The notes: a model not told the origin generated them from the sequence alone. Shown: positions 12,316 through 44,674, numbered from the stretch's first letter. The stretch: DNA of 45,265 nt from Candidatus Methylomirabilales bacterium (GCA_046758505.1 JBHIAH010000017.1:1-45265); one strand, 5' to 3'. Made by a program: numbers and translations.

Positions 12316-12328
12316 TACAAGGCTCCTC

Positions 12329-12401
12329 GTCCGATGTCCAATGTCCAACGTCCGAAGTTCATGGTCCGACTCGGTTCATGGTTCATAGTTCATGGTTCAT
12401 G
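12329..12401. repeat. Tandem heptanucleotide repeat tract (GTCCRAN / GTTCATR) between actA and actB
   Basis: gtccgat gtccaat gtccaac gtccgaa gttcatg gtccgac, then tcg, then gttcatg gttcata gttcatg gttcatg. Confidence 0.85.
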
Positions 12402-28736: not shown

Positions 28737-28738
28737 CA

Positions 28739-31378
28739 ATGGCTGACATGAATCGACGCAATTTCCTGCAGACATCCGCGGCCTTGGCCACCGGCGTGGC
28801 CATGGGGGGAAAGCTCGTCCGCGACAAGGAGATGTTCCAGTTCGTGACCGAGGCGGAAGCCGCCACCACCGACACCCGCACGCTGGTCCCGACGCAGTGC
28901 CCGTACTGCGGCGTGGGCTGTCAAACCTACTTCGTCGTGGAGAAGGGGAAAATCGTGGCCTCGGTCCCCGACAAGGACTCCCCGGTGAACCAGGGAATGC
29001 AGTGCATCAAGGGACTCACCGCCGCGGAGGCGCTGTACGTGGACCGGCTCGACACCGTCCTCATCCGCAAGGACATGTCGAATCCCCTGACGGGCCACGT
29101 CTCGAAGACAAAGGGACGTTTCGACGACGACGTCTTCCGCGTGGCGACGTGGGAAGAGGCGAGCGAGATCGTTGCCAGCATGGTGGTAAACGTGGTGAAG
29201 AAGTTCGGGGGGAACGCCGTCGGCGTGTACCAGTCGGGCCAGCTCACGATGGAGGAGCAGTGGCTCGATAACATCTTTTACAAGGGGGTCCTGCAATCGA
29301 ACACCATCGAGGCCAACGCGCGGATGTGCATGACCTCCGCCGTCACCGGCTATATCCATAGCCTGGGCAGCGACCACCCCCCAGGAAACTACTCCGACAT
29401 CGAGCAGGCAGATTTCATCAGCCACTGGGGCCATAACGCGCGCGGCTCGCACCCGGTTCTTTTCTGGCGGGTGGCGGCGTCAAAGGAAAAGCGCAACATC
29501 CCGACCATGGTGGTCGATCCGCGCTATACCGGGACCATGGACGGCTACGCCCAGATCAACTCCAACAACAGCCTCTCCATCACCATTCGCCCGAACGGGG
29601 ATATCTCGCTCCAGAACGCCATCGCCCACGTCCTGATGAAAGAGTTTCCCCAGGCGGTGGACGAGGCCTTCATCCGCCGGCATACCGACGGGTTCGAACA
29701 GTACCGCGAGGGCATCATGGCGCGCTACAGCCCGGAGCAGGTCGTCGACCGGACGGGCCTCGCCCCCGCCGTCGTGCGCCGGATCGCCCAGATCTGGGCC
29801 GAGGCGACCCTGCGGGGTCGGCGCCGCGGCCGAGGCGGTGTGCTCACCTTCTGGGGGATCGGATACAACCAGTCGATCCACGGCCAGCACCGCACGATCA
29901 ACCTGATCAATCTCCACCTGCTGACCGGCAACATCGGGCGGCCGGGGTGCGGGCCCTTCTCGATGACGGGGCAGCCCAACGCGATGAGCGAACGCCTCAT
30001 GGGCGGCCTCACCGGCCGGCTCCCCTTCAACGAGGGGCTCAAGAACGCCAGGCACCGCAAGCGCATCAACAAGATGTGGGGCCTGCCGGCGGGCCGCCTC
30101 GACGTCACCGCCGCCGCGCCCAACAAAGGGATGGCGGTCGGCATGTTCGAGCGCGCCTTCAAGGGCGAGGTCAAGGTGATGCAGTTTGCTTACGCGACCC
30201 ACGTTGACCTGCCCGAGGTGAACACCCTCGTCCGGCCGGCGATCACCAAGACCTTTACGTATATGGCCGAGGCGTATCGTCACGCGCCAAACCTGCTGTA
30301 CGCGGACGTCGTGTTCCCCGCGGCGACCCATGGCGAGAAGTGGGGCGTCTACCAGAACAGCGAGCGCCGCATGTACGTCACCGACAAGGCGATGGAGCCG
30401 CCCAAAAACTGCAAGCCCGACCTCGACATCACCATCGACGAGGGGAAGACGATCGCCGGGAAGCTGGGGCTCGACCCGGACAAGGTCTTTCCCTATCGGA
30501 AGAAGGCGAACGGCCGCTACGATCCGGAGGACGTCTTTCGCCACATCTGCCGCTCGAGCAAGGGGACCGACGCGGATCTGACCGGCATCCTCGCGGTGGA
30601 GAAGCGGGACAAGATCTCCCCGTATGAGCAGCTCCGCAAGCTCAAAGGGATCTTTTATCCCGCGCCTACCTATCAGCACGCGAAGCAGGGGGGCATCTCC
30701 CGCAAGTACATGGATCAGGAGGTCGGATGGAAGGATAAGCCCTACGGGGCCTTCCGCCGGAAAGACGGCAGGGCCAAATTCAAGCTGACCGAGCAGGACT
30801 ACTCGCGGGCGAAGGAGCTCATCGGCAAGTTCGAGAAGGTGGGGAAAGATCCAAACCTCTTTGTCACGGACCACTACCAGGTGCTGGTCGAGCTGCGCGA
30901 CAACGCCCTGACGCCGGAGCTCCCCGATTTCGATTTCTACGGCAAATCCCTCGAGGAAATCCGGAGGGCGGACAAGTATCCCTTCTGGCTCAGCCTCGGC
31001 GTGGTCTTCGAGCATTTCCATACGACGAAGACCATCCGGGCGGCCACCACCCGCCGGCTCGTCCCGGAGCAGTACGTGGAGATGAATGACCGCGACGCCA
31101 AACAGCTCGGCGTGCAGGATGGGGAGTGGGTTCGCATCGTCACCCCGCGGGGGAACTACGAGGCGCGGGCGAGCATCGGCACCAAGAGCAAGGTCAAGCC
31201 GGCCCGCAACAAGGTCATGCCGGGCCAGCTCTTCTCCCCGTGGAATCTCTCCGTGGCCGACAGCGCGGATCCGAAGAAGAACCGCTGGATGGTCAACGCG
31301 GTCTCGCACCGCGCCTTTGATCCGGTGTCCGGGCAGGCGGACTTCAAGCACCTGAAGGCGCGGATCGAGAAGATCTGA
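28739..31378 (+). CDS. napA: Tat-exported Mo-bisPGD nitrate-reductase-like catalytic subunit (NapA/NasA family, divergent)
   Basis: Tat NRRNFLQ, [4Fe-4S] motif CPYCGVGC...CIKG, Mo-ligand Cys in NARMCMTSA, GPFSMTGQPNA, NSERR and DPVSGQADFK; followed by napG/napH-like genes. Confidence 0.75.
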   Translation: MADMNRRNFLQTSAALATGVAMGGKLVRDKEMFQFVTEAEAATTDTRTLVPTQCPYCGVGCQTYFVVEKGKIVASVPDKDSPVNQGMQCIKGLTAAEALYVDRLDTVLIRKDMSNPLTGHVSKTKGRFDDDVFRVATWEEASEIVASMVVNVVKKFGGNAVGVYQSGQLTMEEQWLDNIFYKGVLQSNTIEANARMCMTSAVTGYIHSLGSDHPPGNYSDIEQADFISHWGHNARGSHPVLFWRVAASKEKRNIPTMVVDPRYTGTMDGYAQINSNNSLSITIRPNGDISLQNAIAHVLMKEFPQAVDEAFIRRHTDGFEQYREGIMARYSPEQVVDRTGLAPAVVRRIAQIWAEATLRGRRRGRGGVLTFWGIGYNQSIHGQHRTINLINLHLLTGNIGRPGCGPFSMTGQPNAMSERLMGGLTGRLPFNEGLKNARHRKRINKMWGLPAGRLDVTAAAPNKGMAVGMFERAFKGEVKVMQFAYATHVDLPEVNTLVRPAITKTFTYMAEAYRHAPNLLYADVVFPAATHGEKWGVYQNSERRMYVTDKAMEPPKNCKPDLDITIDEGKTIAGKLGLDPDKVFPYRKKANGRYDPEDVFRHICRSSKGTDADLTGILAVEKRDKISPYEQLRKLKGIFYPAPTYQHAKQGGISRKYMDQEVGWKDKPYGAFRRKDGRAKFKLTEQDYSRAKELIGKFEKVGKDPNLFVTDHYQVLVELRDNALTPELPDFDFYGKSLEEIRRADKYPFWLSLGVVFEHFHTTKTIRAATTRRLVPEQYVEMNDRDAKQLGVQDGEWVRIVTPRGNYEARASIGTKSKVKPARNKVMPGQLFSPWNLSVADSADPKKNRWMVNAVSHRAFDPVSGQADFKHLKARIEKI

Positions 31379-31402
31379 TTCCGCGACGGGCAGGGTGATG
31401 CG

Positions 31403-31993
31403 GTGGAGGTGAATCTTAAGCGGCGAACCTTCCTGCGGGCGGGGGCCGTGGGAGCGGCCTTCCTGTGGCTCGGCGCGGGCGGGCGGGTGTTCGCCCGGGT
31501 CGGCGCCCGGCTCCGGCGTTTCCTCCGTCCCCCTGGCGCCTTGCCCGAGGCGGAGTTTCGTGAGCGCTGCATCCGCTGTGCCCGGTGCGCGGCCGTCTGT
31601 CCCAACACCGCCATCCGCATGGCGGACTTTCGGTTTGGCCTCCGCAACCTCAACACCCCCTACATCGTGCCGCGGGAGCAGGCGTGCATGCTCTGCATGA
31701 AGTGCACCGCCGTCTGCCCCACGGGCGCCCTGACCCCGATACCGGCGGACACCGCGGAAATCGTCACGCGCGTGAAGATGGGGCGCGCCTATGTCGATAA
31801 GTCCATGTGCTACTCGTACCAGAAGCGCACCTGCGGCGTGTGCATCCGGGCCTGTCCGTTCCCGGGGGTCGCGATGAAGACGGGCCTGTACGAGCAACCC
31901 ATCGTGACAGCGGTCTGCGTTGGATGCGGCCTCTGCGAGCGTGCCTGCATCCACATCCCCCAGGCGATCCGCATCGCTCCGGTGGAGGCATGA
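31403..31993 (+). CDS. napG: NapG/MauM-family polyferredoxin
   Basis: Tat KRRTFLR, LRPPGA, and cluster motifs CIRCARCAAVCP, CMLCMKCTAVCP, CGVCIRACP and CVGCGLCERAC. Confidence 0.88.
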   Translation: MEVNLKRRTFLRAGAVGAAFLWLGAGGRVFARVGARLRRFLRPPGALPEAEFRERCIRCARCAAVCPNTAIRMADFRFGLRNLNTPYIVPREQACMLCMKCTAVCPTGALTPIPADTAEIVTRVKMGRAYVDKSMCYSYQKRTCGVCIRACPFPGVAMKTGLYEQPIVTAVCVGCGLCERACIHIPQAIRIAPVEA

Positions 31994-31994
31994 C

Positions 31995-33500
31995 ATGATG
32001 CCCCGGTGGCCCCGCCGCGTTGTGCAGCTCTCGGCACTCGCCTTTCTCCTTGCGGTGCCGGCGCTGAACTACGGCGGTGTCCTCTACCAGCAGTACGGCA
32101 AGAACGGCTATCATACGATCGCCCTCATGGGCACGGTCTTCGAGCGGGTCCTCTTCCGGCTCTTCTCGGCCGTCGCGGGGGTCCTGCCCGATCCGGCGGT
32201 CAGCTCGACAGCCGTCGTGGGCGGGTTCGGGACCTTCTCGATCTTCGGCGTCTCCTTCCTCGACCCCGTGGTCGCCCTCGAGACGGGGCTGCGCGTGCCG
32301 GGGGCCTGGGCGGCTCTCCTGGCGGGGGCGGCCCTGCCGCTGCTGCTCGCCGTATTGTTGGGACGGGTCTTTTGCGGGTGGCTCTGTCCCGTGAACACGA
32401 TCCTCGAGGGGTTCGATCTCCTCCGAAAGCGCGCTCTGCCGCGCCTCGGCCTCCGGCCCCCGGACCTTGCGGTGCCCCGGTGGCTGAAGTGGGGCCTCTT
32501 ATTCGCGGGCGTGGCTGCGGCCGTGCTGGCGGATCTCGCCGTATGGGCGAACGTGCTGCTGCACGTTCAGATCGGCCGGGACGTTTTCTCCCTAATGGTC
32601 TTCGGCACGACGACGACGGGAGCTCCGCTTTTCGCGGGAATCATTCTCGGCGAACTGCTTTTCTCGCGTCGGGTGTGGTGCCGGTCGCTCTGCCCCACCG
32701 GTGCCGTCCTCGGCCTGGCGGCCGTGGCGGCCCCGCTCAGGGTGCGCAAGGCGAAGGAACCCTGCGTCAGCGGCTGCGCGGCGTGCGCTCACGTTTGCCC
32801 GATGGGGCTGAACCCGGCGGAGCCGTTCCCGGCGGCCGAATGTTACAACTGTGGACTTTGCGTTTCCATCTGTCCGTCCGGTCTGCTCAGGCTCGGCTTC
32901 CCGCGTCGGCGGCACGCCGTCATTGCGGAGGTTCTTCCCATGGGTAAGTCGGTCGTGGGTGTTGTCCTTGCGGGCACCCTGCTGCTCGCTGCGCCGGCGG
33001 CGGCCCACCACATGCGCGGCCAGCCGCACTACGGCTATGCCGAGAACTATCCGCAGGTCCCGACGAAGGAGACGTACGCCCACATCGGCAACTTCGACGT
33101 CACCGTTGTGAGCTACTTCTTCGAGGGGCTACGCCGTAACCTGTCGGACACACCGCATGACGTGCAGTTCTACGTTGGTGTCACCGATAAACGGACGCAT
33201 CAGGGTTACACCGGACCGCTCTCGATCGAGGTGTGGCGTGAGGGGGGACGCATCGCCGGCTTCGACCACGCACGTCCATTCGAGGAGGCGGTGTACCGCA
33301 TCCGCCAGGCGGTTCCCGGCGCGGGCGAGTACGAGCTCCGCCTCGAGGGGGTGGGGTTTCGCGGGAGTGTCTCCGTCGATGTGGAAGGGGAGTCGGCCCC
33401 GGTGACACCCTACCTTCTGACGGGAGTCGCCCTCTTACTGGGCCTGCTCGTCTTTGTGAACCGGCGGCGCATCCGACTGCCGGCGCGGCGACTGCTGTGA
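31995..33500 (+). CDS. napH: NapH/MauN-family membrane ferredoxin, in frame with an extra exported domain (internal start at 32940)
   Basis: GRVFCGWLCP, WCRSLCP, CVSGCAACAHVCP and CYNCGLCVSICP. No stop occurs before a second signal-peptide-bearing segment MGKSVVG...AAAHHMRGQPH. Confidence 0.82.
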   Translation: MMPRWPRRVVQLSALAFLLAVPALNYGGVLYQQYGKNGYHTIALMGTVFERVLFRLFSAVAGVLPDPAVSSTAVVGGFGTFSIFGVSFLDPVVALETGLRVPGAWAALLAGAALPLLLAVLLGRVFCGWLCPVNTILEGFDLLRKRALPRLGLRPPDLAVPRWLKWGLLFAGVAAAVLADLAVWANVLLHVQIGRDVFSLMVFGTTTTGAPLFAGIILGELLFSRRVWCRSLCPTGAVLGLAAVAAPLRVRKAKEPCVSGCAACAHVCPMGLNPAEPFPAAECYNCGLCVSICPSGLLRLGFPRRRHAVIAEVLPMGKSVVGVVLAGTLLLAAPAAAHHMRGQPHYGYAENYPQVPTKETYAHIGNFDVTVVSYFFEGLRRNLSDTPHDVQFYVGVTDKRTHQGYTGPLSIEVWREGGRIAGFDHARPFEEAVYRIRQAVPGAGEYELRLEGVGFRGSVSVDVEGESAPVTPYLLTGVALLLGLLVFVNRRRIRLPARRLL

Positions 33501-34123
33501 GGATGGGAGCTGTGGGCCACGACGATGTGCTCGACAGGTCTATGGACCGCAAGACCTTTTTGCGCGAGGCGCCGGCCGTGTTGTTGCGTGCTGTCGCCCA
33601 GGGTGCCCGCGAGGCGCGCCCCCCCGCTCCGGAGCCCCCCGTCCCCCTCCTTCGCCCGCCCGGGGCAGCTCCCGAGGAACAATTCCTCGAGCTATGTTGC
33701 GGGATCGGGGCCTGCGCGGCGGCCTGCCCGGCGGACGCCATCCAGCTTCGCCCGCGTGAGGACGATCCCAGCCGTCTCGCCCCGATCGTCGTGCCGGACG
33801 AGGCCCCCTGCGTCGTTTGCGAGGAGCTCGCCTGCATGGCGGCCTGCCCGAGCGGGGCGCTCACGCCGACGACCCGGGAGGCGATCCGCATCGGCCGCGC
33901 CCGGGTGAGCGTCGGGGCCTGCCTGTCCTGGGAGGGCGTGGACCTGGACTGTAATTACTGTGTTGACCGCTGTCCGCTCGGAGTGGCTGCCATTGCGATG
34001 GAAAAAACAGCCCGCGGCAAGGGGCCTCGAGTGAAGGATGGCTGCATTGGCTGCGGGGTGTGTGAGTACTATTGTCCAACCGACCCGGCCGCCATACGGG
34101 TCTTCGAGCGCGAGCCCTCATAG
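33497..34123 (+). CDS. NapF/MauM-like polyferredoxin, probably cytoplasmic
   Basis: LRPPGA, CCGIGACAAACP, CVVCEELACMAACP, CNYCVDRCP and CIGCGVCEYYCP. The degenerate DRKTFL motif lacks a hydrophobic core. Confidence 0.85.
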   Translation: MRMGAVGHDDVLDRSMDRKTFLREAPAVLLRAVAQGAREARPPAPEPPVPLLRPPGAAPEEQFLELCCGIGACAAACPADAIQLRPREDDPSRLAPIVVPDEAPCVVCEELACMAACPSGALTPTTREAIRIGRARVSVGACLSWEGVDLDCNYCVDRCPLGVAAIAMEKTARGKGPRVKDGCIGCGVCEYYCPTDPAAIRVFEREPS

Positions 34124-34129
34124 ACTCAT

Positions 34130-34996
34130 TTAAAAATCTTCCTCGTCCCCGTGTTCATCATGGAGCCACACGAGGTACTCCACCAGGTGTTCTGACAGGT
34201 GGTAAAAGGCTTGACTGACCTTCGTCTCTTTGTGGGTCAGCACATAGGGAGCGGTTTCCGCTTCGATGGTTGCCAGCGCGGGCTCGTAAGGGATCGCCAC
34301 CCGAATCGGGATGCCGAAGGTCTGGCCGAGGCCCTCTACGTTCTCGCCACTCGAGCGCCCTTCCATGTTCGAGACAAGCCCGATGGCTGGGGTGCTACTT
34401 GCATCGAAGAACTGCCAGAGGCGTCGGATGCGCTCCCGCTCCCCGGCCCGCGAGACGATGAGCGCGGCATCGATGGCCGGTAAGACCTCCGAGAGGTCCT
34501 CGACCGCCTCGATCCCTGCCGGAAGCTCGATCAGGAGCAGGTCGAGGCCATCCCACTCGACCTCTCCAAGGGACCGCTGCACCGGGCCCCAGTCCCTGAG
34601 GCTCGCCATGCCTTCTCTAGAGGGCTCCCCGATCACCATATCCAGGGTCACGACCTTGACGCCCCCAAGGCCACCCGCCGGAAGGAGGCGGGGACCCCGT
34701 TTCTCCAACCCGCGCGGCGCTCCGCCGAACCTCTGGGGGAAGGACGAGCCACCGAGATCGAGGATCCCGACCGTAGGCACCCGTCGGCGCTCTGTGTCGA
34801 GTCCTTCAAATTTCGCGTGCCTCAGGGCCAAGGCCAAATTGAACGTACACGTGCTCACCCCAACGCCCCGTCTCGTGCCCGTGACGGCCACCGTGAACTC
34901 CACCGGTGCCATCAGGGCCTTGAGCCGCCTGAGTGTCTCGGGCTCGTCGAGCTGAAGCGCCGTGCGCCCTCGCAGTTCGCTTTCTGGAATTGCCAT
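34130..34996 (-). CDS. Degenerate Mrp/NBP35 (ApbC)-like P-loop protein
   Basis: VTGTRRGVGVST..NLALAL, EWDGLDLLLIELPAG, IGLVSNME and IPYEP map onto the Mrp motifs GKGGVGKST, WGxLDxLxxDxPPG and GxVENM. Start ATG 34996 after GGAGG. Confidence 0.75.
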   Translation of the reverse strand: MAIPESELRGRTALQLDEPETLRRLKALMAPVEFTVAVTGTRRGVGVSTCTFNLALALRHAKFEGLDTERRRVPTVGILDLGGSSFPQRFGGAPRGLEKRGPRLLPAGGLGGVKVVTLDMVIGEPSREGMASLRDWGPVQRSLGEVEWDGLDLLLIELPAGIEAVEDLSEVLPAIDAALIVSRAGERERIRRLWQFFDASSTPAIGLVSNMEGRSSGENVEGLGQTFGIPIRVAIPYEPALATIEAETAPYVLTHKETKVSQAFYHLSEHLVEYLVWLHDEHGDEEDF

Positions 34997-35059
34997 CGTG
35001 TCATCCTCCCGATCGCCTTTCACTCGTTTTCCGTGAGATCCATCCGAGACCGCACGGGG

Positions 35060-37732
35060 TTAGACGATGTCCCTCCGGGCAAAGCTCATGGCTTCGAAGG
35101 ATCGCTTGTAGGGGGACTCCCCGATCCGCGTGACCTTTGCCACCGCCAGCATGAAGCGGTAGTGGTCGCTGAGGGGGTCCGGAACCCGGGGGATGAGATC
35201 ATTGATAGAGTTGGTGGTGTCGAACTTCAGGGCGGCCACGACGCCTCTCTTGACTGCCGGGGTAACGATGGCCACGGCCGAAATAGAAGCCCTGGTCATC
35301 TTGATATGGCCGTTCTTCATGAGCCCGGTGAAGCTGTTGTCGTTTCCCATCACCCCGTAGAATCCCCCGGTCTGGATGGCGACCCTGTCATTGGTGAGGC
35401 TCACCATGTCGCCGCTTTCGATCCCGCGGGGACCGGCATCGTCCGGATGGACTTCTACGAAGATCTCCGGCCACCGCTGCATGATGTATGGCTTGCGCAT
35501 GTCGTCGAACATGGTCTGCCACGTCTCGTTGATGCGGACGTTGATCAGCCAGAGCTCCTCCCCCGTGGGCCGCATCCACTCGTAGTAGTCGGAGAAGAGG
35601 TCCCATGGCGACCGCATCCAGTTGAACTTGCCGGACTGCGACTTGGCAGAGGTCAGCCATATCGGCCAGACAGTGGGGCCCTGGGGGCCGGTCTCGGGGA
35701 GCTTCAGTGTCGAGTCGTGGAGCCGCGCCGTCCCGACCAGTTTTCCATCCTCGTACCGGATCGGACACTGAATCCCCTGGGTGCCATACGTCCGTAAGAG
35801 GTCGTGGGCGCGCATCCCTTTCTTCTTGGCCAGCCAAACCAGGGGATGGTAGTTCACCCGGCTTCCCCGTCTGAACCGGGCGCCCTCCTCGAAGACCTCG
35901 TTCGAGTCTTTCCAGTGAAACCCTTCAAAACCCATTCGCTTGGCAAACTGGGCGGCGACCCACCAGTCCGGCTTGGCCTCCCCGGGGGGATCGTAGAACT
36001 TGGAGTAAAGCCGCAGCCGCCGCTCACCGTTACATCGGGCGAAATCCTCCTCGCCCCACGTCGCGGCCGGCAGCACGATATCGGCATACCGGGAGCCGAT
36101 GGGGTCCCGCAGGTAGATCTCCTGGCTGACCACGACCATCCCGCCGCTGTCCACCCGCTTTGTGAGGGTCTCGATGGCTTGGGCCTTGTCGAAGGTTTGA
36201 ATCTGGTGCGGGTTGCCCCGGGTCATCGCTTCAAAGACGCGGCGCAGCTCGGCGCCTCCCGCCATCGACTGGATCCAGGTCGTCCCGATGACCCACGCGA
36301 ACCGCACGTTTCCGCTCTGCACCCACCGGTCGAGGTCGAGCTTCTTTTTTCGTCTGCCGGGGAACTTCTCCGGGGACCTTTCGTTGGGGTATCGCCCCGC
36401 GGTGTTCCCGCCGCGCTGGTGACCGCCAAACCGGCCGATCATCTGGCCGGGGCGGTTCCCGGTCCCGCAGAGGAGGGCGAGTGTCGCGATGGAGACGGTG
36501 TTCAGATAATTGTTCGACCAGTAGAACCCCTTCTCGACCCCGATCGAGGTCTTGGGCCGCTTGCCCCCCAGCGGCTTGGCCATCATCTCTGCCGCCCTGA
36601 TGATCTTCTCCCGGGGGACGCCGGTCTCCTTTTCGGCAAAATCGAGGGTCGATTCCTTTTGGGAAAGTAGCCACTTCTTGTAATCGGTGTAACTTCGGCC
36701 CTCGAGTTTCCCCCAGGTGGTCCGCCACTGCCAGGGGGTGTTCCGCGTGCCCTGACCAAAGCCCGAGTCGGTCTCCCATTTGTTCGAGGTGTATTTGGCA
36801 ATCCAATCCTTATCCTCCCAGCCGTTCTCAAGGATGACCCGCGAGAGGGCCATCAAGAGGATCGTATCGGTCCCGGGGTTGAGCTGGAGGAAGAGGCCCC
36901 CGTGCTTCTCGGCATAGGCCGCCCCCGTGGTCTTCCGGGGATTGGCCATGATGACCTTGAGGGTCCCCCTTTGTATCCCCGGCAGGATCCACGAGGTAAA
37001 CAGGACCGACTTGGTCTCGTACGGGTCACAGCCCGCGCAATACAGGACGTCGGCGTTTCCCCAGTCCCAGTAAGCCGGACCGAAGTTATCGACCCCCACG
37101 TCCCGGAAGCCGGGGGTCGAATTGGTGTTGGCGGTCCCGGTCCAGTGGGAAGCCCACGCCGGGGTCTTGACATGCCGGAAGGCGATCTTGGTCAGGGCGT
37201 AGGTGTTCTCGAAAAACTGGTAGCTGTACATCTTCATGGCCCAGGCGTGGACGCCGTGCTTGTCGATAACGTGCTTCGAGACCTCGGCCATGATGTCTAA
37301 CGCGGTATCCCAGGGAACCATCTGCAGGCTCCCCCCGACCCGGAGGAGGGGATGTTGCAGCCGGTCGGCCGTGGGCGTCTTGGGGTTATAGCACTTCTGG
37401 GCGATACAGCCCCCACGAATGCTGTGTGTTCCCCCCACGTTGACCACCTGCGAGTCGGCGTCGGGGATGACGATCACGTGGTGCGGCCTCCCCTCGTGCA
37501 TCACGATATTGTGCATGTTGGGACTGACCCACTTCCCCGTGTTGGGTGCGACGGGATAGTTCACCCCGAGGGCGTTCTGTCTCGCTTTCGGCCCGCCCTC
37601 TTTCCCTAGGGGCCACCGGTAGACCTTGTACCCGCAGCCGACGACGCAATAGTCGCACGCCGTCGTCAGCACATCGGCGTCCTTCGGGGGGAGGGGAACC
37701 CTGTCTTCCGGAATGTAATATGGGGTTGCCAT
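35060..37732 (-). CDS. idrA: IdrA-like (iodate reductase / arsenite oxidase AioA family) molybdoenzyme large subunit, with a divergent active site
   Basis: VPLPPKDA..TTACDYCVVGCGYKVYRWP and HSIRGG ([3Fe-4S] motif), ENTYALTK, EKG.YWSNNY, GGHQRGG and NGERRLRLY. No signal peptide of its own; preceded by a Rieske subunit and two peroxidases. Confidence 0.75.
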   Translation of the reverse strand: MATPYYIPEDRVPLPPKDADVLTTACDYCVVGCGYKVYRWPLGKEGGPKARQNALGVNYPVAPNTGKWVSPNMHNIVMHEGRPHHVIVIPDADSQVVNVGGTHSIRGGCIAQKCYNPKTPTADRLQHPLLRVGGSLQMVPWDTALDIMAEVSKHVIDKHGVHAWAMKMYSYQFFENTYALTKIAFRHVKTPAWASHWTGTANTNSTPGFRDVGVDNFGPAYWDWGNADVLYCAGCDPYETKSVLFTSWILPGIQRGTLKVIMANPRKTTGAAYAEKHGGLFLQLNPGTDTILLMALSRVILENGWEDKDWIAKYTSNKWETDSGFGQGTRNTPWQWRTTWGKLEGRSYTDYKKWLLSQKESTLDFAEKETGVPREKIIRAAEMMAKPLGGKRPKTSIGVEKGFYWSNNYLNTVSIATLALLCGTGNRPGQMIGRFGGHQRGGNTAGRYPNERSPEKFPGRRKKKLDLDRWVQSGNVRFAWVIGTTWIQSMAGGAELRRVFEAMTRGNPHQIQTFDKAQAIETLTKRVDSGGMVVVSQEIYLRDPIGSRYADIVLPAATWGEEDFARCNGERRLRLYSKFYDPPGEAKPDWWVAAQFAKRMGFEGFHWKDSNEVFEEGARFRRGSRVNYHPLVWLAKKKGMRAHDLLRTYGTQGIQCPIRYEDGKLVGTARLHDSTLKLPETGPQGPTVWPIWLTSAKSQSGKFNWMRSPWDLFSDYYEWMRPTGEELWLINVRINETWQTMFDDMRKPYIMQRWPEIFVEVHPDDAGPRGIESGDMVSLTNDRVAIQTGGFYGVMGNDNSFTGLMKNGHIKMTRASISAVAIVTPAVKRGVVAALKFDTTNSINDLIPRVPDPLSDHYRFMLAVAKVTRIGESPYKRSFEAMSFARRDIV

Positions 37733-37746
37733 TCTTGGTCTCCTCC

Positions 37747-38307
37747 TTACGCCTTCGACCGCAGGTTATCGCTATACCCGTACATCAGGCCGACGATTCC
37801 CGTGGCGTAGATCTCTCGCCCCCTGACCTCGAGGACGATTTGCGGGAGTGGCGCCGTGGCGTGACCGGCCACGACCATGCCGTGCCTGGTGAGATCAAAG
37901 GTGCTCAGGTGAAAGGGGCAGGGCCCGAGGACCTTGTGCTCGGCCTTGTACGTCCCCATCAGCGGGCCCCCCATGTGGGTGCAGAGGTAGTTGAAGGCGA
38001 CGATGTCCCGCCCGCGCCCGACCCCCCCGCCCGCGGGGGCGCCCAGTTTGATCACGAAACAGCTTGAGTGGAGGTCGTTGTAGGGATAGCTAAAGGAAAC
38101 GGGCACGTTCGTCTTGAGCTGGCTCACGGTCGCGATCTTTTTCTCGGGATACCGGCTGAACTTGACCTTCCGGTCCCCAAAGGCGGTCCCGGGAAAGACG
38201 CTGGAGAGGAGCACGGTGGCCGTGACGCCACCTCCCGCTGCGAGAAACTGCCTGCGGGTCAAGCAGGGGGACTCCACGCATGGATGATCCAATTCCTTCT
38301 TGTTCAC
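37747..38307 (-). CDS. idrB: IdrB/AioB-like Rieske [2Fe-2S] small subunit
   Basis: Tat TRRQFL, CTHMGG...CPFH Rieske motifs without the disulfide Cys pair, GHATAPLPQI and GLMYG. Confidence 0.8.
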   Translation of the reverse strand: MNKKELDHPCVESPCLTRRQFLAAGGGVTATVLLSSVFPGTAFGDRKVKFSRYPEKKIATVSQLKTNVPVSFSYPYNDLHSSCFVIKLGAPAGGGVGRGRDIVAFNYLCTHMGGPLMGTYKAEHKVLGPCPFHLSTFDLTRHGMVVAGHATAPLPQIVLEVRGREIYATGIVGLMYGYSDNLRSKA

Positions 38308-38341
38308 GGTGTCACCTCCTCTGGCGCACGTTCCGGCGCGC

Positions 38342-39496
38342 TTACTTCGTGACCATCACCGCATATTCGGGCAAACGGGGCATTTCGAGGAGGATCTCCT
38401 TCCCCGAAAGGCTATCCAGAAAAGCCAGCAGGACTTCCTTCTCCTGATCGGTGAGGTGGAGCTTTCTCACCTTCGTCGTCTTGGTGGCAATACCGAAATA
38501 TTTCGAGGCCTGGTCCTCCCCGCCGCCCCGGTTGTAGAAGTCGACGACCTCCTCGAGGGTGGCGAAGACCCCGTTGTGCATGTAGGGCGCCGTGTACTTC
38601 AGGTACCGCAGGGTCGGCGTCCTAAACTTGGCCATGTCCTCTTTTCTCTTCGCCCGGTAGAAGAGGCCGAGGTCGGTCTTGGTCTTGCGGTAGACGTCCT
38701 CGGGGACCCCCTTGGCGTACTGCTCGAACCGGAAGGTGATTTGTTTGAAGGGATCTTGCGTGAAGGCCGGGTTCTCCGGCACCCCCAGGTTGTAGTACTT
38801 CTGGTCCGTGAAGAAAGGTCCGTTGTGGCACTGGATGCAGCCGGCCTTCCCCTGGAAGAGCGCCAACCCCTGCTGGGCCTTGGCGGATAGGGCCGCCATG
38901 TCCCCCTGCATGTACCGGTCAAAGGGGGTATCCCGCTGGACGAGGGTCCGCTCGAAGGCGGCGATGGCCCGCCAGGCATTCTTGAGGAGCGGCCACTCAT
39001 CGCCAAACACCTCTTTAAAGCGCTTGCGATACTCGGGGATCTGATAGAGGCGGGCTTCCATCGTATCCCGCTCGCCGTTGCCGGCCACCGCTCCCCTGGC
39101 GGCCGTCTCTGCCTGGGCCTCGAGGCTTCGACTGGACCCGGCCCAGAAGAGCTTGTTGTAGTACGCGCTGTTGATGATCGTCTGGATATTGCGCCAGTGG
39201 GAGGTACCGGGGTATCCCCGGCCAATGTCCTGGCCGTCGCCCCATCCGAGCTTGGGAACGTGACAGGTCTCACAACTCAGACTCGTATCCCCGGTGAGCC
39301 TGGGATCGAAAAAGAGGAGCTTTCCCAGCTCGACCTTGGCACGGCTCATCGGGTTGTCGGGGGGAATGGGTGGCGGCCCGAGTGCCCCGAGCGGGGGAAT
39401 CTGTTCGGCCAGAACAGTCTTTCCACTTGCGGAGAGACCGACGGCCATCACGACGGCTGCGAGGAGTAAGGGAACCGCTCTCCCTATTGTTTTCAT
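38342..39496 (-). CDS. idrP1: Diheme cytochrome c peroxidase/MauG-family protein (IdrP1-like)
   Basis: Signal peptide, LGKLLFFDPRL..SCETCH, CIQCHNGP and FRTPTLR...TAPYMHNG; adjacent to idrB. Confidence 0.75.
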   Translation of the reverse strand: MKTIGRAVPLLLAAVVMAVGLSASGKTVLAEQIPPLGALGPPPIPPDNPMSRAKVELGKLLFFDPRLTGDTSLSCETCHVPKLGWGDGQDIGRGYPGTSHWRNIQTIINSAYYNKLFWAGSSRSLEAQAETAARGAVAGNGERDTMEARLYQIPEYRKRFKEVFGDEWPLLKNAWRAIAAFERTLVQRDTPFDRYMQGDMAALSAKAQQGLALFQGKAGCIQCHNGPFFTDQKYYNLGVPENPAFTQDPFKQITFRFEQYAKGVPEDVYRKTKTDLGLFYRAKRKEDMAKFRTPTLRYLKYTAPYMHNGVFATLEEVVDFYNRGGGEDQASKYFGIATKTTKVRKLHLTDQEKEVLLAFLDSLSGKEILLEMPRLPEYAVMVTK

Positions 39497-39523
39497 CTGC
39501 GTTGCTCCTCCGGGATTCGTGCG

Positions 39524-40642
39524 TCAGTTTCTCGTGTCGTACCAGTCGGTAATGAGGGGGTAGTCGAGCGGCAGGTCGTCAGGCATGGCCGCCGTGATTT
39601 CGTCCCCACTCAGGCTCTTGAGGAACGTCACGAGGTCACCGATCTCTCTCGTGGAGAGGCGGACCGGCGTGATGTCCGGCCCCGTCCCCTTGGCGTGAAA
39701 CGTGATCACTTGCTCCAGGGTCTTGAAAATCCCATTGTGCATGTAGGGCGCCGTTCGGGAGACCTCTCGCAAGGACGGGGTCACGAATCTGCCGATGTCC
39801 GCCCGGTTCTTGCTCACCGCATAGTACCCCACGTCGTGTTCGGCCCGCGCAAAGCCCGGGACCCCCATGGCGAGCTGGAAGGACCGCAGGGTAAAGTGCC
39901 GGAAGGGGTCACTCCAGATCTTGGGGTTTTCTGGCACGCCGAGGTTATGCGGCTTGTAGTCGGAGAGCATCGGCCCGTTGTGGCACTGGATGCAGCCGGC
40001 CTTCCCCCGGAAGAGCTTCAGTCCCCGCTTGGCCTTGCGGGAGAGGGCTCTCTTCTCACCCTTGAGATACTTGTCAAAAGGGACGTTTTTCGAGATCAGG
40101 GTTTTCTCAAATTCGCGGATGGAGTTTCGGATCTTCCCGAACGAAGGCTCCGCGTTCCAGGCCTCTTTGAACATCTTGACGTAGAAGGGAATCTGCTTGA
40201 TCCGCTCTTGCAAGAGCCGCCCGTCCATGTTCAGGAAGTGGGTCTCGGTGATGTGGTCCCTCACGTGCACCTGGAGCATGGACTTACCTGGGAGCCGGCC
40301 GTCCCAGTAGACCGTCTCTGCAAAGGCCACATTGACCGGGGACTTGGCGTTGCGGAAATATTTGGATCCGGGGTAGGCATCGGACAGCTCCTCATCGTTG
40401 CCCTCGTTGTTGGCCCATCCCTTGGTGGGGTCGTGACAGGTCGCGCACCGGATCGCGCCATCCCCGGAGAGTTTCGGATCGAAGAAGAGATACATCCCGA
40501 GCTTGGCCCGGGCTGGCTTCACCGTGGGGGGATCGGGCAAGGGAGCAAGATTCTCCGCCGCACGGGCCTTTTCGGGGGGCAGGGCAAAAAGGGAGAGGGC
40601 GATTATCATGAAGCCAGCGAACAATATAGTGACACCTTTCAT
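39524..40642 (-). CDS. idrP2: Diheme cytochrome c peroxidase/MauG-family protein (IdrP2-like)
   Basis: LG..LFFDPKLSGD..CATCH, WDGR, CIQCHNGP and TPSLRE..TAPYMHNG. ATG 40642 follows GGAGGAGG. Confidence 0.75.
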   Translation of the reverse strand: MKGVTILFAGFMIIALSLFALPPEKARAAENLAPLPDPPTVKPARAKLGMYLFFDPKLSGDGAIRCATCHDPTKGWANNEGNDEELSDAYPGSKYFRNAKSPVNVAFAETVYWDGRLPGKSMLQVHVRDHITETHFLNMDGRLLQERIKQIPFYVKMFKEAWNAEPSFGKIRNSIREFEKTLISKNVPFDKYLKGEKRALSRKAKRGLKLFRGKAGCIQCHNGPMLSDYKPHNLGVPENPKIWSDPFRHFTLRSFQLAMGVPGFARAEHDVGYYAVSKNRADIGRFVTPSLREVSRTAPYMHNGIFKTLEQVITFHAKGTGPDITPVRLSTREIGDLVTFLKSLSGDEITAAMPDDLPLDYPLITDWYDTRN

Positions 40643-40842
40643 CCCTTGCACCTCCTCCTCCGGAAGTTTCTGGCGGTCATGGGACAACAAAGGGGGTGCC
40701 CCGTTCCTTTGTGACTAAGCCATGAAGCTTGACGGTGAGCCACGATCTGAAATGCCAAGGGAGCGCGCCGTCGGCCGTTCGATCAGGGCCGGTGGTATGT
40801 AAGCCGCGACCGGGACAAGTCGATCTCAGATTGCCTCTCAAT

Positions 40843-40919: not shown

Positions 40920-42551
40920 CTATCGGACCTCCTCGATCTGCAGGCGCTGCCACGTGGAGACCGCCTTCTGCCCATCCCGGTCCCCTTCGGTGCCGTCCCA
41001 GACGGCGAAGGCCACGGGCAGGGACTGACCCGGGCTGAACTGCGCGTCCCGTTTGCTTCCCGAATGGATGTTTCTCACCATGACTACCCGCCACTTCCCC
41101 TCGGTCCAGACACCCCTCCCCTGGACGTTCTGGTCTTGAGGGGGCTGGGATGTGAGGGTGCCGAAGCCGATCGCATTCAGGTCCTCCACCGATGAGCGGC
41201 GGTTCGGGCTAGAAAGCAAGCTCCCGGCCCCCCAACCGGCGAGGTACGTGGGATCATGCCTGGAGGTCGGGACCCTTACCTGGGCGGCGCTTGGGCTTCC
41301 CAGTGGGACGCCCTGATTGAACGGGTACTCGTCCACCGCCATTCCCGCGTAGCGGTCCTGAATATCCCGGTACCGCTGCAGGTCCGCTTCCCAGTCCGCC
41401 TTCCAGTGCCAGATATTCACCGGATCCTTCTTATCGCCCATGGTGAACGAGGGTTCACCGTGACCCGCACCCCGACGCGCGGGGGCCTGCACGGGGAACT
41501 GAACAGCCACGGCGTCCCGGAAGTCCTGGTGTCCTAAGACCTCCTGGTCCGCGATGGCGTCATCCCACTCGAGGAGGATAGCGATCTGCGTGCCGTTATG
41601 GAGGGATTTCACCGCCACACGGTCAATGGTCTTGGCTCGTGTCCAGAGGGTCCTCAGGGAAACTTGCGTCGCCGGGACCTTGGTCCACATCGATGCCATG
41701 GGATCAAGGGGGACGTTCCCCGGCAAAAATCGCGACCTGATCATTCCCGACTCCGTCGACGCCTCCTTTCGCGGCGTGCGCTGGGCGAGGGACAGGGTGT
41801 AATACGCCAGGGCCCACGTCTCCTCCTCGGTGAGGGAGTCGCCATACGAAGGCATCGGCGTGCCACCGATCCCTACCTGGAGGGTCCGATAGATATCCTG
41901 GACGGTCGAGCCGGCCTTCATCTTCCCGGGGATGGTGAAATCGTAGGGGACGATACGATAGCCCCACTCGTCTTTCAGGGTCGCGGCGGAGGGGCCGTCC
42001 CCCCTGCCGGAGATCCCGTGGCAGTCGAAGCACCCGCCCTCCTTGTAAAACTTTTTCCCCAGGGCGAGGAGCCGAGGCGTTCGCTTCGGCGGCCGTGGGA
42101 TTGCGACAAGCTGGCCGGCAGGTTGGGTTGTGAACACCGGGGAGAGGCTCTTGACGTAGGCGACCAGGGCCCCCCGCTCCTGCTCCGTGAGCGAGGCCCA
42201 CGAGGGCATTGAGGTCCCGGGGATCCCTTTGGTGATGGTTCTCAAGAGATCCTGATCGGTGGGGAGGTTCATCGTACTCCGGATCTTGAACCTGCCCCTG
42301 GTGAAGTCCCTGGGCTTCGGATACAGGAGGTACGCGGCAGGCCCGTTTCCCTTGCCTTCCCTGCCATGGCAGACGGCGCACTTCTCTTCGTACAATGCCT
42401 TTCCCGTGGTGAGGGTCCCCGAGGCGCGCTGCACCGTTTTCCCCCGGGGTGTCGCCTCCGGACCGCGCCCATCCCCCGGTCCCGCTGCCAGGGCGGTGAT
42501 CGTCAGCGCCGTGATGGCCACGACCGTGCCTTGCAAAGCCTTCCTGGCCAT
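40920..42551 (-). CDS. Diheme cytochrome c fused to an EB_dh heme-b-binding domain (NxrC/gamma-subunit-like)
   Basis: Signal peptide, CAVCH and CFDCH, then DAVAVQFP...FTMG...VNIWHWKA...VAFAVWDG..DRDGQKAVSTW (Met/Lys heme b ligands of type II DMSO-reductase gamma subunits); in the nxr operon. Confidence 0.85.
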   Translation of the reverse strand: MARKALQGTVVAITALTITALAAGPGDGRGPEATPRGKTVQRASGTLTTGKALYEEKCAVCHGREGKGNGPAAYLLYPKPRDFTRGRFKIRSTMNLPTDQDLLRTITKGIPGTSMPSWASLTEQERGALVAYVKSLSPVFTTQPAGQLVAIPRPPKRTPRLLALGKKFYKEGGCFDCHGISGRGDGPSAATLKDEWGYRIVPYDFTIPGKMKAGSTVQDIYRTLQVGIGGTPMPSYGDSLTEEETWALAYYTLSLAQRTPRKEASTESGMIRSRFLPGNVPLDPMASMWTKVPATQVSLRTLWTRAKTIDRVAVKSLHNGTQIAILLEWDDAIADQEVLGHQDFRDAVAVQFPVQAPARRGAGHGEPSFTMGDKKDPVNIWHWKADWEADLQRYRDIQDRYAGMAVDEYPFNQGVPLGSPSAAQVRVPTSRHDPTYLAGWGAGSLLSSPNRRSSVEDLNAIGFGTLTSQPPQDQNVQGRGVWTEGKWRVVMVRNIHSGSKRDAQFSPGQSLPVAFAVWDGTEGDRDGQKAVSTWQRLQIEEVR

Positions 42552-42564
42552 TTCACTCCCTCCT

Positions 42565-43353
42565 TCATGGATCCCGTTTGCGCGTCATGGCCCTCGTGGG
42601 GAGGCTGATCAGTGTCGGATCCTCTCCGCACCCCTCTGCTCCGCAGGGGAAATCCGGTCCGGCAGGCTCGACGTCGATGGGGGCGAGCTCGAGCGCGACG
42701 CTCTCGATCCGGATGCCGACGGCACGGCAGTCTGCCTCGAGGCAGTCCGCGGTCACATCGGCCAGCGTGCTGAGGATGCCGCCCACTCCACGGTCCGCGA
42801 GACGCCGCAGGAACGTCGGGGCCCACCGACCAAGGTGATGGTGCAGGAACTGTCCATACCCATCCCGGCAGACCTCCGCCTGTTCGATCCACTCCCGACC
42901 AAGGGCATACGCCTCCTTGATGGCGAGGACGTGCATGAACTCCAGCTCTACGGCGATGTGGTCCGGCCGCTCACGGCACGCCTCGGCACCCTCAAGGCCA
43001 AAGGCTCGGTAAAAGCCCGCGACGTCTGCCATGCATTGCGTCTCTTGGAACAGGTGTCGGGTGCCGTAGCGCGCCTCGTACGGGGGGATCTCGCCTGCGG
43101 CGGTATGACCGAAGACCGCGACGTGCTCCGACTCGAACTGCTCGCGTGGGCAGTCACGGAGCACGGTTCGGAGTGTTTCAAACGCCTCCACAGGCCACCC
43201 CAGGACGGCAAGGCCCCGTGCGGCCTCTCCGCCTAGTTCTCCCCGCAGCGCTCTGTACCCTGCCGCGGTTGGATAGGCGAATGCCGTGGAGAGGAAGCGG
43301 TACAGGTGGCCCCGGGCCAACGCCTCTTCGCACCGTTGTGTTGAGGTTCCCAT
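42565..43353 (-). CDS. TorD/DmsD/NarJ-family molybdoenzyme chaperone
   Basis: PPYE..Y, VAGFYRAFG, ERPDHIAVELEFM and FL..HLGRW. Confidence 0.92.
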   Translation of the reverse strand: MGTSTQRCEEALARGHLYRFLSTAFAYPTAAGYRALRGELGGEAARGLAVLGWPVEAFETLRTVLRDCPREQFESEHVAVFGHTAAGEIPPYEARYGTRHLFQETQCMADVAGFYRAFGLEGAEACRERPDHIAVELEFMHVLAIKEAYALGREWIEQAEVCRDGYGQFLHHHLGRWAPTFLRRLADRGVGGILSTLADVTADCLEADCRAVGIRIESVALELAPIDVEPAGPDFPCGAEGCGEDPTLISLPTRAMTRKRDP

Positions 43354-43384
43354 GATGTTCTCCTGCCGGGGGGCGCCCGCCGGC

Positions 43385-44674
43385 TTATATCGAGTTCACG
43401 TGCTCCTTCGAACGCTCGAAGGTCGGCTCCTCGACCGTCGTCCGGACCACCTCCTTGCCGTCCCGATCAAATCCGATGACCGTGTCGTTGTACATTGCCC
43501 ACGGCTTGCCTCCGATCTCGGTCTCGAAAAGCTTTCCCCCCTCCCGGATTTCGTACCGGAAGATGACTTTCTGGGCGACCCGAAAGAGCTGGAGAACGGC
43601 GAGCAGCTCGCGGGAAGGGGCGACGTATCGCTCGATCGCCAGGTCCACCCCCGGTCCGAACATCTGCCGCAGATATGCCCGCGGCACCCATCGGGGAGGA
43701 ATATAATAGATGTTGGGCTCGGTACCGAACTGTGGATAGAGCGGCAAGGCGACCTTTTCCACCTGAATCAGAAAGTAGAGGGGGTTGGATCGATCCTCGG
43801 CCCACGCTCCGGTCCGTCGGTTGATTTGGACGAGGCCCTGGAGCCGGATCTTTCCGACGCACGCCGACATGCACCGGGTTTCGAGGGGGACCCCGTCGGG
43901 GGTCAGTTGGGGATCCTTCCCTTCGATCCGCGGATAGCAGGCGACACACTTTTCCGAGATGCGGGTCGTGGGACGGTACATGGCTTTCTTATAGGGGCAA
44001 GCCTCCACGCACTTCCGGTAGCCGCGACATCGCTGCTGGTCGATCAGGACAATTCCATCCTCTTGGCGCTTGTATATGGCCTTTCGTGGGCAGGCCGCGA
44101 GACACCCCGGATACGTGCAGTGGTTGCAGATCCGCTGCAGGTAAAAGAACCAGGTCTTGTGCTGTGGCAGGGTCGTCCCCGGGGGATGCAATTCTCCTTG
44201 GCTCCCCTGGTGGCCGGTCGCGGTATCCTCGTAGATGTTGGGGGAACGCCACTCCTCGTCGCCCGGGATGTATCCCAAGGCCCTCATGTGTCCCTCTGGT
44301 CCGTACCGTTTCAAGGCGGCGTCGAAGATGGTCATCCCCTCGAAGACGCCGTACGGTCGCCGTGGTCCGTCCTTTTTCGACGCATCCCAGGCCGCCTGCG
44401 TGCCCTCGCGCTGATGCGCCTCGTCGAGGCGTTCCAAGAGCTTCACGTCCCAGAACTGGGGATACCCTCCATAGGGCTTTGTCTCGACGTTGTTCCACCA
44501 CATGTGCTCCTGCCCTTTGGAGAAGGTCCAGGTGGACCTACACGCCATGGTACAGGTTTGACATCCGATGCAGCGGTTAATATTGAAGACGGCGGCGAAC
44601 TGCCATTTCGGGTGGGCCTCCCGGTACGGGTAGTGCATTCTGCGGCCGAGCTGCCAGTTATAGACCTGGGCCAT
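43385..44674 (-). CDS. nxrB: Nitrite oxidoreductase / nitrate reductase beta subunit, periplasmic Nitrospira/anammox type
   Basis: VYNWQLGR..YPY...PKWQF..VFNINRC..CQTC, WWNNVETKPYGGYP, YLQRICNHCTYPGCLAACPRKAIYKR, EKCVACYPRIEG and QMFGPGVD. Confidence 0.93.
   Translation of the reverse strand: MAQVYNWQLGRRMHYPYREAHPKWQFAAVFNINRCIGCQTCTMACRSTWTFSKGQEHMWWNNVETKPYGGYPQFWDVKLLERLDEAHQREGTQAAWDASKKDGPRRPYGVFEGMTIFDAALKRYGPEGHMRALGYIPGDEEWRSPNIYEDTATGHQGSQGELHPPGTTLPQHKTWFFYLQRICNHCTYPGCLAACPRKAIYKRQEDGIVLIDQQRCRGYRKCVEACPYKKAMYRPTTRISEKCVACYPRIEGKDPQLTPDGVPLETRCMSACVGKIRLQGLVQINRRTGAWAEDRSNPLYFLIQVEKVALPLYPQFGTEPNIYYIPPRWVPRAYLRQMFGPGVDLAIERYVAPSRELLAVLQLFRVAQKVIFRYEIREGGKLFETEIGGKPWAMYNDTVIGFDRDGKEVVRTTVEEPTFERSKEHVNSI

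Follow-up and report, generated by a model that had tools for sequence, protein, structure and literature searches.

We analyzed a 45 kb stretch of DNA from a Candidatus Methylomirabilales bacterium (GCA_046758505.1, JBHIAH010000017.1:1-45265; 45,265 nucleotides, hereafter "the window") that carries a gene cluster of the kind established for dissimilatory iodate reductase (Idr). Its large subunit, an IdrA-like protein of the arsenite oxidase (Aio)/Idr family, has a tryptophan directly after the histidine of the loop that faces the molybdenum (Mo), a methionine in place of Lys861, and an alanine in place of Phe696. We refer to proteins with this combination as the HW type, which, judged from the sequences compared here, is real, rare, and under purifying selection. 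We consider it about an even bet (probability roughly 0.5) that iodate or a close halogen-oxyanion analogue would still be the substrate of the HW type, with altered binding or proton delivery. We favor this reading because the P2-P1-B-A gene order matches that of the iodate respirer Azonexus hydrophilus NCP973, the protein is placed in the same crown of the family tree, its catalytic core is kept, and its gene is under purifying selection. We favor it also because the number of private changes is unexceptional, no genome has both the HW and the ordinary type, and the surroundings are respiratory. The HW type is a natural experiment in which, on the same scaffold and with the same partners, an invariant acidic second-sphere residue and an invariant lysine have been exchanged, and it bears on which features set iodate reduction apart from arsenite oxidation in this family.

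The idr-like cluster and its relatives

Five consecutive minus-strand genes, idrP2, idrP1, idrB, the idrA-like gene, and a MinD/Mrp-like gene, span positions 34130-40642. Taken together, they are best read as one respiratory module of five genes in a Methylomirabilales bacterium, with IdrAB as a predicted periplasmic oxyanion reductase. A first-pass annotation had listed two cytochrome c peroxidase (CCP)/MauG genes, a twin-arginine translocation (Tat) Rieske subunit, and an AioA-family large subunit, and Pfam and NCBIfam bear out this set on four minus-strand open reading frames (ORFs). The products of idrP2 (39524..40642, minus strand; Pfam CCP_MauG, 8e-34) and idrP1 (38342..39496, minus strand; 3.3e-44) are di-heme proteins of the CCP/MauG family, each with two CxxCH motifs, and IdrP2, a putative peroxidase, has a signal-peptide-like N-terminus. 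The idrB gene (37747..38307, minus strand) encodes a 186-aa Rieske [2Fe-2S] small subunit that scores 122.2 bits against TIGR02694 (cut-off 95.65) and 1.9e-6 against Pfam Rieske. It carries the twin-arginine motif TRRQFL together with CTH and CPFH, and its Pfam TAT_signal score of 21.5 bits falls slightly below the cut-off of 22.7. The 890-aa IdrA-like protein (35060..37732, minus strand) has the Pfam domains Rieske_3 [3Fe-4S] (2.8e-37), Molybdopterin (4.4e-34), and Molydop_binding, and scores 447.7 bits against NCBIfam arsenite_ox_L (cut-off 359). Both subunits thus exceed the cut-offs of families named arsenite oxidase, which is the customary database label for IdrAB.

By homology with AioAB and IdrAB, electrons would pass from the cytochrome c pool through the Rieske cluster and the [3Fe-4S] cluster to the Mo site, which would reduce an oxyanion. 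The Tat signal on IdrB would place the enzyme in the periplasm, with IdrA holding the Mo-bis(pyranopterin guanine dinucleotide) cofactor and the [3Fe-4S] cluster. The two di-heme peroxidases would clear a released reactive oxidant, as proposed for iodate reductase.

Among solved structures, AioA chains are the closest relatives of the IdrA-like protein by sequence (E 2.8e-81), and they are also the top fold matches (template modeling [TM] score 0.81-0.82) of its AlphaFold2 model, which has a mean predicted local distance difference test score of 90.6. The PDB matches from the sequence and fold searches were AioA chains only, with no IdrA structure among them. The likeness to AioAB (PDB 4AAY, 1G8K, 8CFF) covers the fold, the cofactor set, the Tat-Rieske partner, the absence of a protein ligand to Mo, and conserved equivalents of AioA His199, Lys413, Arg447, and His451. 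However, identity to AioA in the structural alignment is only 25-26%, and the window protein has H-WTGTANTNS and Arg440 where AioA has H-NRPAYNSE and Glu453. In addition, peroxidase genes adjoin the window genes, whereas AioA neighborhoods lack them, and catalysis presumably runs in the opposite direction; the available text of PMC8692401 names the two di-heme peroxidase genes in the operon as the feature that separates idr from aio neighborhoods.

A search of 5.8 billion proteins returned two top matches that are 87% and 86% identical to the IdrA-like protein, the other matches listed being at most 68% identical; the closest named relative is from 'Candidatus Methylomirabilales bacterium'. 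In a maximum-likelihood tree of 65 rows rooted on four AioA-like representatives, the HW clade consists of the window protein and three relatives (4 rows; Shimodaira-Hasegawa-like approximate likelihood-ratio test [SH-aLRT] support 100, stem 0.22). This clade is nested in a 40-row clade (SH-aLRT 99), itself within a 54-row crown (97) that also contains the Azonexus clade and the marine/Vibrio clade. On this tree, the window protein falls within the IdrA branch and not within the AioA clade. Nesting of the HW clade inside the crown is likely, although its exact position is not secure. By the same comparison, the HW-type residues are derived whichever placement holds, because all 11 deeper representatives (AioA included) have Lys861 and none has Trp after the loop His.

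Azonexus hydrophilus NCP973 was the isolate whose IdrA we compared directly. The available text of PMC13455634 counts it among five iodate respirers in isolation and reports upregulation of its idrABP1P2 genes when iodate is reduced, the other isolates being Pseudomonas sp. SCT, Denitromonas iodatirespirans IR-12, Aromatoleum toluclasticum TC-10, and Azoarcus sp. DN11; two marine clusters were expressed in E. coli in the same work. The large subunit of its P2-P1-B-A cluster (NZ_CP151407.1) is the best match of the window protein in a plasmid collection, at 53.6% identity; the two loci share gene order, and the two proteins share crown clade, the [3Fe-4S] motif, and His196, Lys401, Arg434, and His438. 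They differ in the loop, where H-D-K-C of Azonexus corresponds to H-W-T-G-T in a loop one residue longer and the closing Asp is Ser, and at four further positions (Lys861 -> Met, Phe696 -> Ala, Gly732 -> Val, Gly741 -> Met). Downstream, the window has a degenerate MinD/Mrp-like gene instead of the cytochrome c and moaA genes of Azonexus, and the regulators are different.

Within the same phylum, the idrP2P1BA cluster of Candidatus Methylomirabilis iodofontis has been read as an iodate reductase, and the closest match given for its IdrA is a Planctomycetaceae protein at 65.4% (Zhu et al. 2022, PMC10989891, in its available text). Likened from this published description, the window cluster has the same gene order, and its IdrA-like protein is 64% identical to a Planctomycetaceae protein (P0020). 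The iodofontis genome came from an iodine-rich spring according to the same text, whereas the public runs that hold the window are labeled hydrothermal vent metagenome and belong to one study, possibly the source of the assembly; no RNA runs are among the sequencing runs listed for the stretch. The main text of PMC10989891, as available, does not discuss active-site residues, and the word 'IdrA' is absent from its available supplement text. Reyes-Umana et al. 2021 (PMC8692401, available text) had already noted idr clusters that branch deeply, in NC10, Rokubacteria, and Planctomycetaceae. The nearest relatives in our comparison are IdrA-like proteins of Rokubacteria, NC10, Planctomycetes, and Nitrospinota (56-68% identical), which have the same operon core but, unlike the HW type, keep H-D-x-P, Lys861, and Phe696.

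Residues around the molybdenum site

The loop in question (A194-G208, ASHWTGTANTNSTPG; 37109..37153, minus strand) was aligned by HMMER, which places residues 196-208 opposite His199-Gly210 of NT-26 AioA. His196 of the HW type thereby corresponds to His199 of AioA, Trp197 to Asn200, Thr198 to Arg201, and Ser205 to Glu207. The residue four positions after the His presumably corresponds to the Mo ligand of other superfamily enzymes. The second coordination sphere of Mo in AioA is given as H199, N200, R201, E207, K385, R447, and H451 in the available text of PMC3758308, and that of PMC10448176 lists Asp169, His199, Arg201, Glu207, Lys413, Arg447, His451, and Glu453. The loop caps the metal in our reading because its AioA counterparts are listed as second-sphere residues.

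Residue counts rest on 127 other IdrA-like proteins (130 aligned, including P0001, P0005, and P0006). The loop His is invariant in these relatives and is kept in the window protein as His196, but the position of the otherwise invariant Asp is occupied in the alignment by Trp197/Thr198, with one extra residue. The resulting loop, H-WTGTANTNS-TPG, is one residue longer than usual and has no acidic residue. The first-pass annotation had given H-NRPAYNSE for AioA, which the PDB alignment and the representatives confirm, and HDK-x5-D for IdrA, which fits H-DKCSATND of Azonexus hydrophilus NCP973; from these it argued that the charged residues of the loop were lost and a Trp added. For the position after the His, this holds, since the Asp found there is replaced by Trp, a residue that occurs there in none of the 127 other IdrA-like proteins. 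For the remainder of the loop it does not, because the interior is hypervariable among IdrA-like proteins (e.g., H-DKCSATND-ATG in Azonexus, H-DTPSDVTA-TPG in Vibrio). The Arg201 position is filled by N, K, H, T, or Q and the Glu207 position by D in 61, S in 53, and A in 10 of the relatives, and the Thr and Ser of the window protein lie within this ordinary variation. A scan of metagenomes, limited to the best 80 of 596 relatives, agrees with these counts: the residue after the His was readable in 71 loci and was D in 67, H in 2, E in 1, and W in 1, the last being an HW-type locus (L103).

Compared with the AioA set, only the equivalents of His199, Arg447, and His451 are kept, Asn200, Arg201, Glu207, and Glu453 being replaced by Trp, Thr, Ser, and Arg. 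We also considered whether the protein could have gone back to oxidizing arsenite or antimonite, or be a decaying or non-catalytic copy. The NCBIfam name of the large subunit is that of arsenite oxidase, and the neutral residue after the His recalls the Asn of AioA. Yet three hallmarks of AioA, at 201, 207, and 453, are among the residues replaced, the peroxidase genes that aio neighborhoods lack (PMC8692401, available text) are present, and decay is difficult to reconcile with an intact gene, free of stops, under purifying selection. We regard reversion or decay as very improbable.

Outside the loop, the catalytic core of the window protein is kept at Ser170, His196, Lys401, Arg434, and His438, and the [3Fe-4S] motif C26/C29/C33 (C-x2-C-x3-C) is invariant in the 54-sequence alignment. 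Arg440 of GGHQ-R-G, at the position of AioA Glu453, is also kept and is shared with most IdrA proteins (R in 125 of the 127, with one Cys and one Leu). It is Azonexus hydrophilus NCP973 IdrA that has Cys at this position, so the Arg appears not to be needed for iodate respiration.

The first-pass annotation had also cited WQTMFDD and YRFMLAV as deviating from WQSGFDD and YRYKLG. Both motifs are present in the minus-strand translation, at residues 738-744 (35501..35521) and 858-864, respectively, and both depart from the family consensus, which is WQSGFDD and YR[FY]KLG. In the first, Ser740 is replaced by Thr (S in 120 of the 127 others) and Gly741 by Met, or by Gln in other HW sequences (G in 105); nearby position 732, G in 125 others, is Val or Thr in the HW type. 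In the second, the codon at 35150..35152 (minus strand) encodes Met861 in place of a Lys that is found in all 127 others, in all 11 outer-clade representatives, and in 71 of 72 metagenome loci, the sole exception being a misaligned fragment. The NapA encoded in the window itself has a Lys at the matching motif DP-x-S...FK, so this Lys predates the Aio/Idr family. The codon at 35645..35647 (minus strand) encodes Ala696, where the HW type has Ala or Ser and where Phe is present in 127/127 others, 77/78 metagenome loci, and 10/11 outer representatives. The HW type thus departs from two empirical invariants of IdrA, the Asp after the Mo-facing His and the Lys in YR[FY]-K-L.

As a control for how unusual such changes are, we counted, for each of ten clades of the tree, the columns that differ in all of its members but show at least 90% conservation across the remaining crown rows. 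The HW clade has 6 such columns, compared with 14 in the clade of the verified Azonexus enzyme, 11 in the marine clade, 8 in the Entotheonella-type clade, and 0-3 in each of the other six clades. These counts rule out the HW type as an exceptionally divergent clade, and the earlier description of the active-site loop as "rewritten" does not stand by number of changes. The HW type is distinctive instead by position. No other crown row varies at Phe696 or Lys861, and at least 9 of the 11 outer rows share these residues; at columns that are invariant in this double sense the HW clade has 2 changes, and other clades have 0 or 1. One further HW change falls on the only conserved second-sphere position of the loop.

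It is also conceivable that the HW type is an ordinary iodate reductase in which the substitutions, whether neutral or purely compensatory, leave function unaffected. The hypervariable loop and the unexceptional count of private changes are in line with this explanation, Phe696 -> Ala beside Asp -> Trp looks as if it could be compensatory, and two distant proteins (P0164 and P0190) that have lost both the His loop and the Lys hint at coupling between the two sites. Nevertheless, we consider it unlikely, as columns invariant in 127/127 relatives and conserved out to AioA seldom change without consequence, and the replacements have in turn become fixed across five versions of the protein.

P0164 and P0190 (~38% and ~34% identical) belong to a sister lineage in which G-N-G-Y-x-F-W-x-D-E-S replaces the His loop. 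They also have GGHP for GGHQ and no C-terminal Lys, and so represent another uncharacterized active-site variant. That the only other lineage without the His loop is also without the Lys is a weak hint that loop and Lys may be coupled.

The center of the loop, A-N-T-N (Ala201-Asn204, 37121-37132), is in frame with some betaproteobacterial loops of the form H-DK[CN]-ANTN-D (L020, L028) and has nearly the same codons (GCC AAC ACC AAT/C), although relatives that are nearer over the whole sequence have loops quite unlike this type. The shared A-N-T-N could be convergence or an old exchange. Origin of the loop by frameshift was rejected: no shifted forward frame resembles a standard loop, and GCC-AAC-ACC-AAT is in frame with the betaproteobacterial loops.

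A limited literature search found no residue-level study of IdrA. The words 'active site' and 'residue' are absent from the available text of PMC13455634, 'residue' is likewise absent from PMC11445184, and PMC5432002 and PMC10100899 hold no residue-level information on the loop. In the searched literature we found no earlier discussion of the residues described here for the HW type.

Versions and distribution of the HW type

The H-W loop, Met861, and Ala/Ser696 are confined to P0001, P0005, and P0006 among the 130 aligned proteins, plus G034 and L103. This gives five versions, namely the window protein, P0005, P0006 (identical to the copy on a contig designated C45), G034 from the same genus, and L103, which are pairwise 83-89% identical. 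All five keep H-W-T-G-T-[AS]-N-[TN]-N-S-T-P-G and Ala/Ser at 696, and Met861 is present in the four versions that cover it, L103 stopping at residue 759. Between the window gene and the C45 gene there are 300 synonymous and 123 non-synonymous codon differences, and within the 13 loop codons (H196-G208) there are 4 synonymous and 0 non-synonymous ones. The IdrA-like gene is intact, with no stops. It is because these divergent versions share the same changes that we take the HW type to be real and selected, and the recurrence of the motif with synonymous differences rules out a sequencing artefact.

An IdrA-like gene was detected in 17 of 251 genomes of the phylum (E <= 1e-100) and in 3 of 13 other genomes of the window's genus. 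One of these three is HW type (G034), and two (G028, G032) are of the ordinary H-DKPGPG type. No genome was found with both HW and HD copies: G000 has two HW copies, G034 has one HW copy, and G028 and G032 have one HD copy each. We do not accept the two copies in G000 as paralogues in one genome, since the bin membership of contig C45 is doubtful. The composition of this contig fits the bin (rank 60 of 86). However, its first gene is 74-78% identical to genomes of a third family versus 66-68% to the window's genus, and C45 has probably been misplaced in one or both of the bins G000 and G214. The 20 kb contig C45 (L006) is 99.99% identical over 20,000 bases to G214:C36 (L102), which is assigned to another family; G000 and G214 are both species-representative genomes. 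Upstream of its cluster, Pfam identifies a Cache/HAMP/GAF histidine kinase and a NarL-type regulator, and the G034 locus has DNA similarity to this regulator region.

Substrate, partner genes, and genomic surroundings

Several of our observations weigh against iodate remaining the substrate of the HW type. The residue after the loop His is Asp in 124 of the 127 relatives, Glu in 2, and His in 1, as opposed to Trp in the window protein, and Lys861 and Phe696, invariant across Aio/Idr family relatives, are both lost. Loss of the Asp may well change chemistry or substrate, as its AioA counterpart is a second-sphere residue. At partner-protein columns with at least 90% conservation across 74-91 other loci, private changes of the HW type number 1 in IdrB, 5 in IdrP1, and 8 in IdrP2. 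The extra MinD/Mrp-like gene turned up in HW loci only. Finally, an approximately unbiased test did not firmly reject a position of the HW clade outside the crown, with the other crown rows as one clade (p 0.055; the group tested was named after inspection of the tree).

These points raise the possibility, which we hold only tentatively, that the HW type has a different physiological substrate and represents a third specificity in the Aio/Idr family, the peroxidases being kept for a reactive oxidant. The new substrate specificity proposed in the first-pass annotation is accordingly a plausible and reasonable hypothesis and not a result. With one acidic and one basic residue lost and Trp and Met gained near Mo, the pocket would be less charged and more hydrophobic, and would be well matched to an oxyanion with weak hydration (chlorate, bromate, nitrate, selenate) or to a neutral species. 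The unique loss of the Asp, Lys861, and Phe696, the second-sphere role of the first of these positions in AioA, the HW-specific changes in IdrB, IdrP1, and IdrP2, and the HW-specific accessory gene all point this way, as does the NarL-type system with a Cache/GAF sensor upstream of the C45 cluster, where Azonexus has a sigma-54 type regulator. Spelled out in full, this alternative would combine a Trp/Met-lined, charge-depleted pocket for something other than iodate and arsenite (e.g., an oxyanion of a further halogen, of nitrogen, or of selenium, or a neutral molecule) with maturation aided by a dedicated, ATPase-dead MinD/Mrp-like protein and coupling to the peroxidases, a combination that we consider possible but doubtful. 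Several results are difficult to square with a different substrate: the HW clade is placed inside the iodate-reductase branch, the majority of second-sphere positions either have not changed or stay in the range seen among IdrA proteins, the clade of the verified IdrA has more private changes (14 versus 6), and the absence of genomes with both types fits replacement in the same role better, although this last point is drawn from five genomes only.

Were the HW type to act on another substrate, inferences based on idrA would need a residue check. Metagenome idrA counts serve as a proxy for iodate respiration (PMC8692401 and PMC13455634, in their available texts), and a cluster from Methylomirabilota has been interpreted as coupling methane oxidation to iodate (PMC10989891, available text).

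If iodate or a close analogue is still reduced, as we favor, Asp -> Trp, Lys -> Met, and Phe -> Ala could be one coupled repacking of the Mo shell. We infer this because both members of a charged pair have gone together and a large residue gives way to a small one next to the reverse exchange.

The partner proteins carry HW-specific residues at otherwise fully conserved positions. In IdrP1, Ser92, 100% conserved in the other loci, is Gly in the HW type, and in IdrP2, Tyr332, 100% conserved elsewhere, is His, so that F-Y-x-x-G-G reads F-H-A-K-G. We placed the idrP2 start at 40642, which is also where the first-pass annotation ended the cluster, at an ATG after the ribosome-binding site (RBS) GGAGGAGG, both conserved in three HW loci; the mechanical ORF reaches a TTG at 40690 (39524-40690). 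A comparison of the upstream regions of these three loci revealed no clear operator, the RBS and start being the only common elements.

The MinD/Mrp(NUBPL)-like gene (34130..35023, minus strand; Pfam ParA/NUBPL, 2.6e-15) lies directly downstream of the idrA-like gene. It occupies this place in all three HW loci that include downstream DNA (L006, 16419-17267; L101, 8449-9339; and the window), and it was not found in the non-HW loci searched (44 in one set, about 108 in another), some of which end short downstream. In all three copies, the Walker A motif reads G-T-x-x-G-x-G-V-S-T (GTRRGVGVST in the window) and has lost both lysines, which makes ATP hydrolysis doubtful. The protein scores 47 bits against NCBIfam MrpORP, far below the cut-off of 450, and its structural neighbors in the Atlas are Fe-S cluster carrier proteins (TM 0.74-0.78). 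It may be an ATPase-dead maturation factor.

With regard to chlorate and methane metabolism, a gene of the Chlor_dismutase family occurs in the window's genome, but the same search matched 7 of 14 unrelated control genomes; since the family is widespread in the controls, we do not take the match as evidence for chlorate metabolism. PF02461 (PmoA) had no match in the window's genome, but the control genomes gave no match either, so this negative carries no weight.

The window as a whole is a dense respiratory island. Upstream of idrP2 lies a Nar/type II dimethyl sulfoxide-reductase set (40920-44674, minus strand) that is cut by the contig end. It comprises a Nar-type beta subunit (43385-44674), a NarJ-like delta chaperone (42565-43353), and, directly upstream of idrP2, a heme-b gamma subunit that carries two fused cytochrome c domains (40920-42551), all on the minus strand; from the beta-subunit gene to the contig end, the ORFs listed include none for a catalytic subunit. 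Positions 28724-34123 encode a Tat-NapA together with NapH/G-like ferredoxins. The window also holds three NarL-type two-component systems. Farther away, minus-strand regions at 8068-12348 and 13511-15235 hold genes for a 984-aa fused molybdopterin-fold/Fe-S (MopB) protein resembling that of alternative complex III and for its NrfD partner, flanked by those for multi-heme cytochromes c and subunit I of a heme-copper oxidase.

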